Shown: positions 7,450 through 59,264 of the stretch, one piece after another
How the letters are laid out: each line of letters starts with the position of its first letter
How positions within the stretch are numbered: the stretch's first letter is position 1
Source: Actinomycetota bacterium
GTDB taxonomy: Bacteria; Actinomycetota; UBA4738; HRBIN12
NCBI GenBank assembly: GCA_038249195.1
Contig: JBBRWM010000001.1
Span: forward strand, 75,489 to 139,488
Length of the DNA: 64,000 nucleotides
Reading direction: 5' to 3'
Program-made: the position numbers and the translations under genes
The notes under the pieces: generated by a model
The model's input: the letters and a program-made list of their open reading frames with translations, nothing else
Told to the model about the DNA's origin: nothing
Databases searched by the model: none

Positions 7450-7520
7450 TGGCCCGTGGTGTAACGGTAGCACGGCTGATTCTGGATCAGTTAGTCTTGG
7501 TTCGAATCCAGGCGGGCCAG
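7450..7520 (+). tRNA. tRNA-Gln (anticodon CTG)
   Basis: Manual cloverleaf fold. Acceptor TGGCCCG/CGGGCCA, U8, D-loop with GG. Anticodon stem GCTGA/TCAGT with loop TTCTGGA (CTG at 7482-7484). T-arm CTTGG-TTCGAAT-CCAGG. CCA is not encoded. Confidence 0.75.
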
Positions 7521-15683: not shown

Positions 15684-15756
15684 GGTCCCATCGTCTAGAG
15701 GCCTAGGACATCACCCTCTCAAGGTGAAGACACGGGTTCAAATCCCGTTGGGACTA
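15684..15756 (+). tRNA. tRNA-Glu (anticodon CTC)
   Basis: GGTCCCATCGTCTAGAGGCCTAGGACATCACCCTCTCAAGGTGAAGACACGGGTTCAAATCCCGTTGGGACTA. Anticodon loop CTCTCAA (CTC at 15718-15720). Strong similarity to bacterial tRNA-Glu. Confidence 0.85.
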
Positions 15757-53531: not shown

Positions 53532-54794
53532 GTGATGAGCGGCGCACTGGACGGGATCGATCTGGTGGACCCGGACAACTACGTGGAGGGGGTCCCGTTC
53601 GCGTGGTTCGACCGGCTGCGCGAGGAGGCGCCGGTGATGTGGCACCCGGAGCCCGGTCCGAACTCGGGCTTCTGGTCCGTCACCCGCTACGACGACCTCA
53701 CGACCGTTCACATGGACTGGCAGACGTACTCCTCCGAGGTGGGGGCGGTCTCTTTAGAAGAGCTCGACGAGGAGCAGCTCCTGATCCGCAAGTCGATGCT
53801 GGAGACCGATCCGCCACGACACACCGAGCTCCGCAAGGTGTGCTCGAAGAAGTTCAGCGCCCGCGCGGTGGGCGCGTTCGAGGACTGGATCCGCGACGTC
53901 GCCCGTAGCGTCCTCGATCGCGCGCTCCCGCTCGGCAATTTCGACTTCGTGAGCGAGATCAGTCGCGAGCTCCCCATCCGGTTCCTGTGCTCGATCTTCA
54001 CCGTTCCGCAGGAGGATGCGCCGGAGCTGATCCGTTGGGGCGACGAGATGATCGGCAACCAGGACCCCGACACCGCGGCCGTGGTCGTGGACAAGGAGGA
54101 CACCGAGGCCTACCGCCTCCTGCCGTTCCGCTCCCCCGCCGCCACCAAGGTGTTCGCGTACGCCGACCGACAGCGGGACGCACGCCTCGCCGAGCCCGCC
54201 GACGACGTTATCCAAGCGCTCACCATCGCCCAGTCCGAGGGCATCCTGGACGAGCAGGATTTCCACAACTACTTCTCGGTCCTGATGATCGCGGGCAACG
54301 AGACCACGCGTCACACGATCTCCCACGGGATGCTTGCGCTCATGGAGCACCCGGAACAGCTGCAGCTGCTCCGCGAAGACCCGTCGCTCATCCCCGCCGC
54401 CACGGAGGAGATCCTGCGATGGGCCACGCCGGTGTTTCATTTCCGGCGCACCGCCACGCGCGACGTGGAGCTGGGCGGGCAGCAGATCAAGGCCGGCGAC
54501 AAGGTCGTCACCTGGTACATCAGCGCGAACCGGGACCCCGCCGTGTTCCCCGATCCATACCGCTTCGACGTGACCCGCACGCCCAACGATCACGTCACCT
54601 TCGGGCCGGGCGGGCCGCACTTCTGCTTGGGCGCGCACCTCGCGCGCCTGGAGACGCGCATCTTGTTCCAGGAGCTGCTTCCTCGCCTGGATACGATCGA
54701 GTTGGCCGGCCCCGTCGTGCGGCTTCGCTCCAATTTCGTCAACGGGATCAAACGGATGCCCGTCAGGCTATCTACGGAGAGCGCCTCAGGGTAG
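53532..54794 (+). CDS. Cytochrome P450
   Basis: FGPGGPHFCLGAHLAR. EEILRW. AGNETT. Confidence 0.85.
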   Translation: MMSGALDGIDLVDPDNYVEGVPFAWFDRLREEAPVMWHPEPGPNSGFWSVTRYDDLTTVHMDWQTYSSEVGAVSLEELDEEQLLIRKSMLETDPPRHTELRKVCSKKFSARAVGAFEDWIRDVARSVLDRALPLGNFDFVSEISRELPIRFLCSIFTVPQEDAPELIRWGDEMIGNQDPDTAAVVVDKEDTEAYRLLPFRSPAATKVFAYADRQRDARLAEPADDVIQALTIAQSEGILDEQDFHNYFSVLMIAGNETTRHTISHGMLALMEHPEQLQLLREDPSLIPAATEEILRWATPVFHFRRTATRDVELGGQQIKAGDKVVTWYISANRDPAVFPDPYRFDVTRTPNDHVTFGPGGPHFCLGAHLARLETRILFQELLPRLDTIELAGPVVRLRSNFVNGIKRMPVRLSTESASG

Positions 54795-54943
54795 TCGGGA
54801 CGGCCTTCGTCGTACTCGTCGACACCTGCGTCAAACGCGCTCATCCCATGATCCTGCGGATCGACCGCATCGCATCTCCCACAGGCGCATAGGTTCCGGC
54901 CGTCGCCGGTGCCCATGGGACGGGGAGGATTGGGGGACGCGGA

Positions 54944-55744
54944 CCGAAGGGAAGGATCATCGCCACCACGACCGATCAACCTGCCATCCCCACGGGGGTC
55001 ACCGACGAGCGACTCGCCGGCCTCCGCCGCTGGAACATCGGCCTCACGATCCTGCATCTCGCCCAGGCGGCGCTCATCCTCTTCCTCGCCGACGACTTCG
55101 CGATCGCGGTCACGTCCTCGTTCCCGGAGGGCGCACCGGGTTCGCCGGCGCCTCCGCCCGAGGCGCTGTTCGATGTGCGGATCGGCGTGGCTGTGGCCAT
55201 CTTCCTCGGCCTGGCGGCGCTGGACCACCTGCTGACCGCGACCGTGAGCCGCGGCGTGTACGAGCGCGACCTGCGCCGGGGCATCAACCGCTTCCGGTGG
55301 GTGGAGTACTCGTTCAGCGCCACCCTGATGATCGTGCTGATCGGCTTCTACTCCGGCGTCACCTCGATCAACACCGTGATCGCGGTGGCGGGAGCCAACG
55401 TGGGCATGATCCTGTTCGGCTGGCTCCAGGAGCGCATGAATCCGCCCGGCCGCACTTCGACGACGATGCTGCCGTTCTGGTTCGGCGCGCTGGTCGGCAT
55501 CGCGCCGTGGATCTCGATCGCCGTCAACATCGTTGGTTCTTCTTCGGTGCCAGGGTTCGTCTACGGCATCGTGGTGGCGCAGTTCGTCTTCTTCTTCAGC
55601 TTCGGGCTGAACCAACTGCTGCAGTACCGCGAAACGGGTCCCTGGGCCGACTACGCGTTCGGCGAGAAGGCGTACCTCGTGCTGAGCCTGGGAGCGAAAT
55701 CGTTCCTCGCATGGCAGATCTTCGCCGGGTCACTCGCGACCTGA
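54944..55744 (+). CDS. Heliorhodopsin. The conserved TM1-2 region lies upstream of the first canonical start (55175); a possible frameshift or non-canonical start makes the 5' boundary unresolved
   Basis: Manual translation of frame 2 from 54944 gives ...DERLAGLRRWNIGLTILHLAQAALILFLADDFAIAVTSSF...NRFRWVEYSFSATLMIVLIG...MILFGWLQE...LPFWFG...VPGFVYGI...YLVLSLGAKSFLAWQIFAG. This aligns along its length with heliorhodopsin 48C12, including the retinal Schiff-base Lys in SLGAKS. Confidence 0.8.
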   Translation, partial: PKGRIIATTTDQPAIPTGVTDERLAGLRRWNIGLTILHLAQAALILFLADDFAIAVTSSFPEGAPGSPAPPPEALFDVRIGVAVAIFLGLAALDHLLTATVSRGVYERDLRRGINRFRWVEYSFSATLMIVLIGFYSGVTSINTVIAVAGANVGMILFGWLQERMNPPGRTSTTMLPFWFGALVGIAPWISIAVNIVGSSSVPGFVYGIVVAQFVFFFSFGLNQLLQYRETGPWADYAFGEKAYLVLSLGAKSFLAWQIFAGSLAT

Positions 55745-55799
55745 GACGCACGAGCGGTGAGCGAGGCTTCCCGCGCGGTCAGTCCTTCGGCCGGCTCGC

Positions 55800-56312
55800 T
55801 CAGGACCCGGCGTCGCCGGTCGCCACCGAGGCGAACAAGGTGCGGAGCATCGCCGCCAGGTCGTCCTGCTGGGCCGGCGAGAGGGGAGCGGCCACGGCGG
55901 ACTCCTCGAGGTTGAACGTGGGGAAGAGCGTCTCGATCGTGCTTCGCCCCGAAGGGGTCAACTCCGCGATCACCATGCGCCCGTCCTTGGGATCCTTGCG
56001 TCGTGTGAGGAACCCGCGGCCCTCGAGCGTGCTCATCACGCCCGTCGCCGTCGGCCGGCTGATGCCCACGGCGGAGGCGAACGCGCGGGCCTCCATCGGG
56101 CCCCACACCCATAGCACCCACAGGCCCACGAACGAGGTCCACGACAGCCGGTCGTTCGCGAGCACGCGCGCCTCCATGTGACGCCGGATGGCGGTCGAGC
56201 TTCGGAAGAGGTTCGAGATGGCCCACATCGCCCGGAAGTCGAGCGGCAGGTGCCCGAGCTCCTTCACGACCTTCCGCTCCGCCGGGAGCAGCTGGTCGTG
56301 CTGGTCGTTCAT
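55800..56312 (-). CDS. MarR-family transcriptional regulator
   Basis: ATG at 56312 overlaps the decarboxylase stop (ATGA). ...GISRPTATGVMSTLEGRGFLTRRKDPKDGR. Confidence 0.75.
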   Translation of the reverse strand: MNDQHDQLLPAERKVVKELGHLPLDFRAMWAISNLFRSSTAIRRHMEARVLANDRLSWTSFVGLWVLWVWGPMEARAFASAVGISRPTATGVMSTLEGRGFLTRRKDPKDGRMVIAELTPSGRSTIETLFPTFNLEESAVAAPLSPAQQDDLAAMLRTLFASVATGDAGS

Positions 56313-57736
56313 CGAGGCCGCTCCGCGGCGAGGCGCTCCCCCAGCTCCCGCGCCACGTCGATGAGCGCGAGCACGTCCTCCTCCGTGGTGCGGTAGTTCA
56401 CGAAACACGGACGCAACCAGAGCTCGTCGTCGATCAGCGCCGACGACAGATACACGCGGCCGTCCGCCTGGATCGCCCGTGCGAGCGCGTCGTTGTGCGC
56501 GTTCAGGTCGACCACCCCGGGCGGCGTGTGTCGCAACGGCACGATGGACAGCTGCGGCGGCGCCTCCAGCACGACGAAGTCCTCGGAAGCCTGCAGGTGC
56601 CGATACAACAGGTCGGCCTCCTCGAGGTTCCGCTCGATCGCCGCGCGGAACTGGGCCGCGCCGTGCGCGCGGAAGGCGAGCCACACCTTGAGCGCCCGGA
56701 AGGGCCTCGAATACTCCAACGTGATGTCCACCGCGTGCAGCTCGTGCCGCTGGTGCGGCAGGTAGCCCTGTTCGTGCGCGAACGCCGCCGCGAGCGCGTC
56801 GGCGTCCTTCATCAGGACGACGCCGCACGCCTTGGGCAGGTACAGCCATTTGTGGGCATCCACCGAGCACGAGTCCGCGCGCTCGATGCCCGCGAACTCT
56901 CGGGCCGCCCGCTCGGTGGCGGCGGCCGGGAGCCCGTAGGCCCCGTCGACGTGTAGCCAGACGCCGCGCGCGGCGCAGACGTCCGCCACCTCGCCGATGG
57001 GATCGACCGCGCCCGTGAGCGTGGTCCCGGCGGTGACGATCACGGCGATCGGCACGATGCCCTGGGCGACGTCGCGGTCGATGGCCTCGGCGAGCAGGTC
57101 GGGGCGCAGCCTGCGAAGGCCGTCCAGCGAAACGGCACGCAGCTGGTCCGAGCCGATCCCCAGGAGCTCCACGGCGCGCGTGACCGAGTAGTGGACCTCC
57201 TGCGAGCAGTAGACGGCGACGTCGCGTCCACCGAGCCCCGTCACGCGGGAGCCGGGCAACGCGTGCTCGCGCGCGGCGGCCAGGGCGGAGACGTTGCTGA
57301 TGGTGCCCCCGCTCGTGAACGCACCGCCGGTGGCCGGGAACCCGATGAACTCGGCCACCCACCGCACCGCCTGGTCCTCCACCTCGGTGGCCGCCCGCGC
57401 GTCCACGGCGAGGTTGATGTCGTAGCTGTGTGCCAGCAGGTCCGCGAGCGCCCCGATCTCGAGGCCGCTGGAGCCGATGAAGGCGAAGTACCGCGGGCGC
57501 GCCTGGGCGATCGATTCGTCGAGGATGCGTGCCGCGTCGTCCAGCGACTCGTGGACCGGGGTGGGTCGCTCGGGTAGCCCCGCCGCCAGCAGCCCCCGCA
57601 CGCGGTCGTCGAGCGGCGGCTCCTCCGGACGGAACCGGTCGAAGCTGTGCCAGGCCTCCCCCACGAGCCGCGCCGCGTGCTCGAGCGCCTCCTCACGAGG
57701 CGCGTCGAGCCGCAGCGGCCGTTCGGGATCGGTCAC
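56309..57736 (-). CDS. Group II PLP-dependent amino-acid decarboxylase
   Basis: SVDAHKWLYLPKACG (PLP-Lys). GTG at 57736, 10 nt after the permease stop. Confidence 0.85.
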   Translation of the reverse strand: MTDPERPLRLDAPREEALEHAARLVGEAWHSFDRFRPEEPPLDDRVRGLLAAGLPERPTPVHESLDDAARILDESIAQARPRYFAFIGSSGLEIGALADLLAHSYDINLAVDARAATEVEDQAVRWVAEFIGFPATGGAFTSGGTISNVSALAAAREHALPGSRVTGLGGRDVAVYCSQEVHYSVTRAVELLGIGSDQLRAVSLDGLRRLRPDLLAEAIDRDVAQGIVPIAVIVTAGTTLTGAVDPIGEVADVCAARGVWLHVDGAYGLPAAATERAAREFAGIERADSCSVDAHKWLYLPKACGVVLMKDADALAAAFAHEQGYLPHQRHELHAVDITLEYSRPFRALKVWLAFRAHGAAQFRAAIERNLEEADLLYRHLQASEDFVVLEAPPQLSIVPLRHTPPGVVDLNAHNDALARAIQADGRVYLSSALIDDELWLRPCFVNYRTTEEDVLALIDVARELGERLAAERPR

Positions 57737-57746
57737 GGCTCCGATG

Positions 57747-59264
57747 CTACGAGGGTGCGTCGCGATGGATCCGCTCGGCACCCCCGTCCGAGAGGTCGGC
57801 GAGCGCCTGGCTGGCGGGCTCGCGTCCGCGCATGATCGTGGTGACGACGGCGCCGATGACGAACCATCCCAGCGCGAACCAGGGCGCGAGCAGGGTGGGG
57901 CTGGGCACCTTGTAGAAGGCGCCGTAGATGGCCGCGCCCGTGAGCGCGATCCCGATCAGCGACGCGACCACGACCCCCACCATGTTGGCGTGGCCGGCCA
58001 GCCCGCGGAAGGCACCCACGGACATCAACAGGTAGACGACCACCAGCGCGAACCCACCGAACGTCGAGGCCCAGATGAACAGGGAGAAGTAGTGCGGGGT
58101 ATCGGGGAGCGCGAAGAGACTCGTCCAGAACTCGTTCAGGGCGATGAATCCCGCCATCACGAGGATCATCAGCGCGATGGCGCCCGTTGGCGTCCCGTAC
58201 CGGGCCGACACCCTCGCGAGCGGTCCCGGGATGCGGCGGTCGCGCGCCATGGCGAACACGCCCCTCGTGGACGCCGTCGCGGCCCCCACCCCGACGGCAA
58301 GGATGTCGAGCAGGACCACGACGATCAGCACCTTGAGGATCGCGTCGGAGCCGTAGCCGCCCGCGGCCTCGGGCGACCCGAGTGCGAACAGCGGCGCCGC
58401 CGCGGCCGCGAAGATGTTGTCGAGATTGAATCCGAAGCCGGCGACCTGCGTGTAGGCGGCGATCAGGTAGAAGACGCTCACCACCACCACGGACAGCAGC
58501 ACCGCGCGCGGGATCGCGCGCTTGGGTTCCGCGGCCTCCTCGGCGAGGTTCGCGGCGGTCTCGAAGCCCACGAAGATCAGGACGCCGTAGAGGACCCCGA
58601 AGAAGATCCCCGACCACCCGTCGACCGACGACGACGGGTTGAACGCCTTGGCGACGTCATTGTCGCCGCCGAGGTCCACGATGACCTTGATGAAGAAGGC
58701 CAACACCACGGCGACCGAGATCAGCGCGAGTGTGAGCTGGACCCGCGTGGAGATCTGTACGCCGAAGTAGAGGACCACGAGGACGAACAGGGCGAACAGC
58801 GCGCTCCACGCCCAGACCGGGAGCGGCGAGGACGAGCTGAACACGCCCGGCGCCGCCGCGTCCGCGGTGAAGATCGAATCGTGGATGTAGCCGCCGACCA
58901 ACACGCCGAGGCCGGCCGTGAGCACCATGGTGCCGCCGTAGTACAGCCAGCCGGCGGCCGCCCCCACGCTCGTGCCCAAGCCCGCCGACACGTAGTCGTA
59001 GAGCGAACCGGCAGCGTGGATCTTCTTGGCGTACTGCGCCACGATCCACCCGATCGCGAAGATGCCGATCGCGGCGATGAGCACGCTCAACGGCGCCGCG
59101 ACCCCGGCGCCCTTTGCGGCCGCATTGGCACCCACGATCAGGGGGATCAAGAACGCGGCCGAGAACACCGGCCCCATGAACCCCACGGACTGAGCCACGA
59201 CGTCGACGAGCGAGAGCTTGGGCGCTCCCAGCCGTTCGTAGCCGAGTGCTTCCTTGTCTGCCAC
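57747..59264 (-). CDS. APC-family amino acid/polyamine permease
   Basis: 505 aa, about 12 TM segments. APC N-terminal signature region. Confidence 0.85.
   Translation of the reverse strand: MADKEALGYERLGAPKLSLVDVVAQSVGFMGPVFSAAFLIPLIVGANAAAKGAGVAAPLSVLIAAIGIFAIGWIVAQYAKKIHAAGSLYDYVSAGLGTSVGAAAGWLYYGGTMVLTAGLGVLVGGYIHDSIFTADAAAPGVFSSSSPLPVWAWSALFALFVLVVLYFGVQISTRVQLTLALISVAVVLAFFIKVIVDLGGDNDVAKAFNPSSSVDGWSGIFFGVLYGVLIFVGFETAANLAEEAAEPKRAIPRAVLLSVVVVSVFYLIAAYTQVAGFGFNLDNIFAAAAAPLFALGSPEAAGGYGSDAILKVLIVVVLLDILAVGVGAATASTRGVFAMARDRRIPGPLARVSARYGTPTGAIALMILVMAGFIALNEFWTSLFALPDTPHYFSLFIWASTFGGFALVVVYLLMSVGAFRGLAGHANMVGVVVASLIGIALTGAAIYGAFYKVPSPTLLAPWFALGWFVIGAVVTTIMRGREPASQALADLSDGGAERIHRDAPS

Follow-up and report, generated by a model that had tools for sequence, protein, structure and literature searches.

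Initiation factor 3 (IF3) discriminates against near-cognate start codons such as AUU and AUC, as in the autoregulation of infC. A few natural genes use such codons. In Escherichia coli, infC, which encodes IF3, and pcnB start at AUU (bioRxiv 10.1101/063800), and in Enterococcus faecalis the ATT start of ebpA, which had been mis-annotated to a downstream ATG, lowers expression (PMC4447247). That bacteria on rare occasions start at AUC, AUU or AUA is recognized, for example in the translation literature on Mycobacterium tuberculosis (PMC9094748). AUC itself initiates in E. coli at ~1–2% of the level of AUG (0.02–3% in other constructs), with an N-terminal methionine detected by mass spectrometry (bioRxiv 10.1101/063800). 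Here we describe a 64,000-nucleotide stretch of an Actinomycetota genome (GenBank assembly GCA_038249195.1, contig JBBRWM010000001.1, positions 75,489 to 139,488; hereafter the window) that holds a heliorhodopsin (HeR) gene without a usable canonical start codon. From comparison with related loci, we consider it likely that this is an intact and functional gene of 261 codons whose translation starts at a near-cognate AUC codon (54959–61 in window coordinates).

To our knowledge, there is almost no documented case of a naturally conserved AUC start in bacteria. A search of the literature on heliorhodopsin start codons found no paper dealing with an ATC start, an initial search for actinobacterial AUC starts gave no relevant result, and the searchable literature yielded no case of a conserved, recurrent AUC start in a rhodopsin clade. 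Like infC and pcnB, the HeR gene appears to have a conserved near-cognate AUN start behind a normal Shine-Dalgarno (SD) sequence, for which weak or conditional translation is expected. Unlike them, it would use AUC rather than AUU, and its product is unrelated to translation, with no obvious autoregulatory loop. The likeness to ebpA is that a rare ATN start is predicted in silico and the canonical call falls wrongly downstream. However, the ebpA start was verified by mutagenesis and reporter fusions, whereas the HeR start is known here from sequence alone, and the HeR start recurs across a clade, where it alternates with ATG in close relatives. Hecht et al., who covered all 64 codons in E. coli, showed that AUC can initiate with methionine, which is the mechanism we propose for HeR; their data are from synthetic E. 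coli reporters, whereas HeR is a natural, conserved gene of high-GC Actinomycetota. Near-cognate starts are known from infC, pcnB and ebpA; what appears to be new here is a recurrent, conserved AUC start in an HeR clade, and no new molecular mechanism is implied.

The heliorhodopsin frame and its first canonical start codon

The HeR frame is closed on its 5ʹ side by a TAG at 54890–54892, stays open until the TGA at 55742–55744, and in translation contains ...GRIIATTTDQPAIPTGVTDERLAGLRRWNIGL.... In a program-made list of open reading frames (ORFs), the earliest in-frame ATG, GTG or TTG is the GTG at 55175, which gives an ORF of 189 amino acids (aa) and lies where helix B begins, near residue 63 of the 48C12 HeR (alignment to PDB 6SU3). 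The 283-codon open frame matches the whole of the Pfam family PF18761 (Heliorhodopsin; residues 44–281, model positions 1–242 of 242, E = 1.2e-96, 323 bits), whereas the 189-aa ORF matches model positions 55–242 only.

The coding sequence (CDS) counted from the ATC aligns with residues 8–253 of 48C12 HeR (E = 2.5e-63). The Schiff-base lysine in helix G is K247 (nt 55697–99), which corresponds to K241 of 48C12 and sits in the context SLGAKSFLAWQ, compared with SLVAKSALAWQ in 6SU3. E116 in helix C (FRWVEYS) aligns with E107 of 48C12, the single counter-ion, and H33 (LHLAQ) and H90 (ALDHL) align with the conserved His23 and His80. HeRs have seven transmembrane helices in an inverted topology (N-terminus inside), bind retinal and show a slow photocycle; the helices of the window protein are predicted from a gap-poor alignment to solved HeRs. 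A protein search found 4573 homologs, with a top match at 92% identity, and the best 120 all belong to PF18761. Set against the HeR family (PF18761; 48C12 HeR, 6SU3 and 6UH3; T. archaeon HeR, 6IS6), the protein is ordinary: it matches the model over its full length, keeps the key residues and has 261 aa, where typical actinobacterial HeRs have 260–262. The difference sits in the gene, in which ATC replaces the ATG of the orthologs.

A sequence-only reading of the window had recognized HeR with its Schiff-base lysine, and had pointed out that no ATG, GTG or TTG follows the upstream stop until 55175. The Pfam match and the alignment of K247 bear out the first point, and the second holds when the frame is re-read against the ORF list. 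That reading was also correct that an ATG lies in the +1-shifted frame at 54915 and that a GGGGG run occupies 54932–54936, but neither the emphasis it placed on this homopolymer nor the frameshift readings that it left open are supported by comparison with relatives. Among the explanations it offered, a non-canonical (ATC or ATT) start is now strongly supported, by 12 genes across the clade.

The 94 codons that precede the first canonical start (54893–55174) have a coding-type G+C content at third codon positions (GC3) of 0.83. We screened all high-GC3 ORFs of the 64-kb window for long stretches of coding character that precede the first canonical start, and checked four candidates against Pfam. 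These gave no sign of relaxed start-codon use elsewhere in the window, as all four have their domains after a canonical start, and HeR is the only case found, among ~60 high-GC3 ORFs, in which conserved coding sequence precedes the first canonical start.

The region upstream of the GTG is under purifying selection. We calculated the ratio of non-synonymous to synonymous divergence (dN/dS) by the Nei-Gojobori method, defining the upstream part as the 60 codons from a conserved GVTD motif to the homolog of 55175. Among HeR genes with ATC at the start position (L003/L082/L083/L004/L085, and the window against L003 and L086), dN/dS is 0.17–0.30 in the upstream part and 0.09–0.21 in the remainder of the gene. 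Over the whole CDS, the window gene has a dN/dS of 0.10–0.16 against its relatives; the value is 0.10 (dS = 0.092, dN = 0.009) against L002, an uncultured Actinomycetes metagenome-assembled genome (MAG; MFD04944.bin.1.51) from a scan of species-representative genomes, whose HeR has 97% aa identity. Because dN/dS is low in genes without a canonical start, we conclude that helix A and the A–B loop are translated and constrained, a result that speaks against pseudogenes and against initiation at the internal GTG; L001, with an indel pair in the A–B loop (described below), is the exception. At the nucleotide level, the window and L002 differ at 23 of 786 CDS positions (2.9%), with 3.2% before 55175 and 2.8% after it; hence, the helix-A region is as constrained as the remaining gene.

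ATC at the position of the orthologous start codon

Most HeR orthologs are 259–262 aa long and start 10–13 residues ahead of a GVTD(E/A)RL motif. We compared start regions in a table of 22 loci. Where the window reads CCG AAG GGA AGG ATC ATC GCC ACC, L086 reads TCG AAG GGA AGC ATC ATG GCC ACC. The two share an SD leader (AAGGGAAGGATC-ATC-GCCACC in the window, AAGGGAAGCATC-ATG-GCCACC in L086), as is also seen over a longer stretch (CCGAAGGGAAGGATC-ATC-GCCACC and TCGAAGGGAAGCATC-ATG-GCCACC), and L006 reads GGGAGCGATC ATG GCT ACG. From the DNA alignment with L086 and L006, the ATC at 54959–61 is the positional homolog of the orthologs' ATG. ATC stands at the homologous place in L002 (GTC ATC) and L001 (ATC ATC), and protein P0001 has Ile there. 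The GAAGGG core of the SD region, GAAGGGAAGGA, lies 7 nt ahead of the ATC, and this region is homologous to GAAGGAG(G) in 20 related loci. L002, too, has an in-frame stop upstream and then no ATG, GTG or TTG up to the homolog of GTG 55175, the same start-less architecture as in the window. The ATC combines an SD at the proper distance, positional homology to canonical starts and conservation, in a gene with no usable canonical start. A second ATC, at 54956–58, directly precedes it, and the two cannot be separated as candidate starts.

ATC occupies the start position, with an SD spacing of 6–7 nt, in 12 distinct HeR genes of uncultured soil Actinomycetota: those of the window, L002, L001, L003, L004, L082, L083 (identical to L084), L085, L087, L167, L168 and L169. 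The frame from ATC to stop is intact in all 12, at 260–261 codons, and in four of them (window, L002, L003 and L087) the stretch from the upstream stop to helix A contains no canonical start codon in frame. In a second group (group B: L003, L004, L082, L083, L085, L087, L167, L168 and L169), the ATC follows the leader ...TCGAAGGAG(G)CACGAC. In L088, L089, L012, L092, L096, L093 and L026, ATG or GTG stands behind this same leader, and L082 and L088 form a matched pair (GAAGGAGGCACGAC-ATC and GAAGGAGGCACGAC-ATG, respectively). The names of the contigs that carry ATC genes indicate MEGAHIT (k127, k141) and Logan short-read assemblies, JGI and NCBI metagenomes, and long-read-style assemblies (contig_N). 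Since the genes come from such mixed assembly types, a platform-specific homopolymer error is very unlikely.

The sequence upstream of the ATC is untranslated. Leaders among related loci differ by 1- and 2-nt indels. Long N-terminal "extensions" occur in 14 of the 120 best protein clusters, all 14 of which have Ile where the others have Met1, and the residues before this Ile are the SD translated in two frames: S-K-E-H-D-I (TCG AAG GAG CAC GAC ATC) and S-R-R-R-H-D-I (TCT CGA AGG AGG CAC GAC ATC). Reading of the SD in two frames, together with leader indels that are not multiples of three, is the reason that we consider this sequence non-coding. In L003, a 1-nt indel lies just 6 nt ahead of the ATC and thereby pins the start to that codon. 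Judging from these sequences, the N-terminal extensions in database HeR entries are gene-caller artefacts, which arise because the caller passes over the ATC and runs to the next upstream canonical codon. Over-extended entries include P0010, P0013, P0033, P0012, P0027 and P0046, which are 289–351 aa long with 40–102 extra N-terminal residues. An exact-sequence look-up of the 189-aa product from GTG 55175 gave no entry in the collection searched, from which the window's genome appears to be absent.

Divergence between the window and L002 is concentrated in the distal leader. At 54902–54935, 10 of 34 positions differ (29%), compared with 2 of 23 at 54936–54958. Given the 29% divergence, the G5 run and the ATG at 54915 belong to the part of the locus that is under least constraint. 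The distal leader (L002 positions 2959–2992) diverges at ~3 times the synonymous level of adjacent genes (dS 0.09; the cytochrome P450 gene is 5.8% different).

How might initiation at the ATC proceed? Transcription from the TAGGTT box would give a leader of ~55 nt. The sequence GGCGCAT(A/G)GGTT does not vary among the window, L002, L001 and L086, with TAGGTT in the first two and TGGGTT in the last two, and the equivalent box in group B is TAGCGT or TAACGT, ~55 nt upstream of the ATC (L003, L082, L083, L087 and L167). From this conservation, the TANNNT box probably acts as a -10 element; a scan of 54700–55900 for E. coli-type promoters and terminators gave no match, the consensus being that of E. 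coli. If TANNNT boxes are promoters, the transcript does not include many of the upstream ATG, GTG and TTG codons that gene callers select. The leader and start region are less stably folded than 197 of 200 shuffled sequences, as expected for an accessible initiation region. The SD region would place the ribosome, with the GAAGGG core 7 nt upstream of the AUC, and initiator fMet-tRNA would read the AUC with a third-position mismatch, such that the protein would start with methionine (M-ATTTDQPAIPTGVTDERL...). The mismatch would make initiation inefficient and sensitive to proof-reading by IF3, and would keep the photoreceptor dose low; HeR output may be both low and condition-dependent. A start at 54959 would give the N-terminal peptide (M)ATTTDQPAIPTGVTDER, and an upstream start would give the tryptic peptide IIATTTDQPAIPTGVTDER.

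We traced the start state on a neighbour-joining (NJ) tree of 120 core protein sequences, with 200 bootstrap trees for parsimony. The Ile state is confined to the clade around the window and is interleaved there with the Met state, and some Ile-state genes are nearest to a Met-state gene (P0012 and P0041, 94.4% identity; P0004 and P0008, 93.2%). Fitch parsimony requires 7–9 changes over the 200 bootstrap trees, compared with ~17 for shuffled states. With ATG at the root, there are 7 gains and 1 reversal; six of the seven gain clades were checked in DNA, and all six have ATC. This suggests ~7 switches from ATG to ATC within the clade.

A further actinobacterial lineage may have an independent ATA start. 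In the HeR gene of L022 (JBBQVZ010000090.1), the 30 codons ahead of helix A contain no ATG, GTG or TTG; an ATA follows GGAGG after 8 nt, ~24 nt upstream of a GIDA motif, and the sister locus L020 has a normal ATG one codon earlier.

Alternative explanations for the missing start

Several points weigh against initiation at the ATC. The near-cognate codon used may be that at 54959, 54956 or 54929, and the last of these, an in-frame ATT, aligns with ATG in L001 and L086 in the window's own sub-clade. In E. coli, AUC initiates very weakly, and its efficiency in these Actinomycetota may differ. Every ATC gene comes from an uncultured organism. The number of switches rests on a protein NJ tree, and recombination of leaders could inflate it. 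Lastly, 98% of Ile codons in these genes are ATC, and a pattern of "always ATC, never ATT/ATA" is partly an effect of composition for that reason; it had been considered as an argument for selection, and is weakened as such.

The alternative that survives best, though we regard it as unlikely, is initiation 10 codons further upstream at ATT 54929 (M-GGRGPKGRIIATTTDQ...), with decay of the relatives' ATG having left ATT in the window and ATC in L002. Consistent with this, the ATT also aligns with an in-frame ATG in P0001 and with ATC in L002, and its spacing to the downstream ATC or ATG is a multiple of three in all four sequences (30, 30, 33 and 30 nt). However, the purine-rich motif GGGGAGG abuts the ATT with 0-nt spacing, and the conserved SD lies between the ATT and ATC 54959. 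The 10 codons at 54929–54958 differ from those of L002 by three non-synonymous changes and one synonymous change, a non-coding-like pattern, whereas the 249 codons from the GVTD motif to the stop hold five non-synonymous changes. In group B, moreover, the 1-nt indel just ahead of the ATC and the upstream stops fix the homologous start at that codon.

Somewhat less likely still is a pseudogene or decaying gene that has lost its ATG and is unexpressed, or yields only a 189-aa fragment comprising helices B–G from GTG 55175. The missing canonical start, the poor initiation at AUC in E. coli and the internal frameshifts of L001 would fit such decay. Yet the frames of all 12 ATC genes are intact at dS values of up to ~0.7, with a dN/dS of 0.15–0.22 overall and 0.17–0.30 in the upstream part, and the functional residues are all kept. 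The GTG is not preceded by an SD, and a fragment without helix A and His33 would be an implausible seven-transmembrane rhodopsin. We had considered a functional start at GTG 55175 separately and rejected it, as the product would lack both helix A and His33, and purifying selection acts on the upstream part. The frameshifts of L001 (positions 320–385; ERZ25039464 contig_36175; P0002) are a compensated -1/+1 indel pair in the A–B loop that turns PEGAPGSPAPPPETLFDV into PRVRRVRRRPRPKRCSMC; they probably reflect a long-read assembly error, or possibly local decay.

An assembly or sequencing indel, with a true run of G6 and a start at ATG 54915 (MGRGGLGGRGPKGRII...), is very improbable. The arithmetic of a sixth G works, the relatives come from long-read MAG projects, and the indel pair in L001 shows that such errors occur in similar data. 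Nevertheless, L002 has GAGGG in place of the G run and no ATG at the site homologous to 54915, yet its frame is equally start-less, and L003 and L087, whose contig names indicate short reads, share the same start-less ATC architecture. The extension predicted with G6 has no homolog among the 120 clusters, and other genes in the window look intact. From 54929 onward, the window frame aligns codon for codon with L001 and L086, with no shift, which contradicts both an assembly indel and the recent inactivating frameshift that the sequence-only reading had also put forward.

Programmed frameshifting on the G run (-1 slippage in the sequence-only reading), from a short ORF at ATG 54915 into the HeR frame, can be dismissed as extremely improbable: an ATG does lie in the neighbouring frame with the G5 run 15 nt downstream, but both are absent from L002, L001 and L086, so that neither a slippery sequence nor an upstream ORF start is conserved, G GGG GAC is not known to act as an efficient slippery heptamer, folding revealed no stimulatory structure, and ATC-start relatives carry entirely different leaders.

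Possible functions, annotation and the surrounding locus

If translation of HeR does start at the ATC, what would maintain this codon? One tentative possibility, which we hold to be doubtful, is that the start codon serves as an evolutionary dosage dial, with repeated switching between ATG and ATC behind an unchanged, strong SD, and with ATC kept because selection favours making very little of the photoreceptor, in amounts that IF3 can tune with stress or growth rate. Were this true, bacteria would have their first case of a natural AUC start conserved throughout a clade, and translational control would for the first time have been proposed for a rhodopsin. What heliorhodopsins do is still under debate; if some lineages deliberately hold HeR translation very low, this would fit a signalling or regulatory role better than energy harvesting. 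The alternation of ATG and ATC among close relatives, behind an identical leader, also offers a clean natural experiment on what high-GC Actinomycetota lose and gain by near-cognate initiation.

Gene finders of the Prodigal type take only ATG, GTG and TTG, and the HeR clade is mis-annotated as a consequence. The result is either truncated fragments (189 aa, in the window and L002) or spurious extensions of 10–90 residues (14 of the top 120 clusters). Surveys and phylogenies of rhodopsins are distorted by such errors, as are constructs for heterologous expression; the correct product would be M-ATTTDQ..., of 261 aa. Features of the locus are listed in Table 1.

Table 1. Features of the heliorhodopsin locus, in window coordinates
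Feature	Position	Strand	Basis or remarks
TAGGTT, -10-like (TANNNT) box that includes the in-frame TAG	54890..54895	+	Kept in relatives; putative promoter
Predicted 5ʹ untranslated leader of HeR mRNA	54902..54958	+	Divergence, indels, weak folding
ATG in the +1-shifted frame, outside the gene	54915..54917	+	GAG in L002; non-ATG in L001 and L086
In-frame ATT, secondary candidate start	54929..54931	+	ATG in L001 and L086; ATC in L002
GGGGG run	54932..54936	+	GAGGG in L002 and L001
Shine-Dalgarno region GAAGGGAAGGA	54946..54956	+	Homologous to AAGGGAAG of L086 (ATG start)
ATC, proposed initiation codon	54959..54961	+	Positional homolog of ATG start in L086 and L006
Heliorhodopsin CDS, 261 codons + TGA	54959..55744	+	PF18761 full-length; 48C12 alignment; dN/dS
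GTG, first canonical start, codon 73; expected call of a gene finder	55175..55177	+	ORF list; 6SU3 alignment
AAA, retinal Schiff-base lysine K247	55697..55699	+	Alignment to 48C12 K241

An Rfam scan of the 64-kb window matched two tRNA genes only (7450–7520 and 15684–15756, forward strand), with no leader RNA family among the matches. Upstream of HeR on the same strand is a cytochrome P450 gene (53532–54794), which is syntenic in L002. Downstream, on the opposite strand, are genes for a MarR-family regulator (55800–56300) and a PLP (pyridoxal phosphate)-dependent decarboxylase (56309–57781). The HeR gene of L001 is flanked by two PIN/PhdYeFM toxin-antitoxin pairs.

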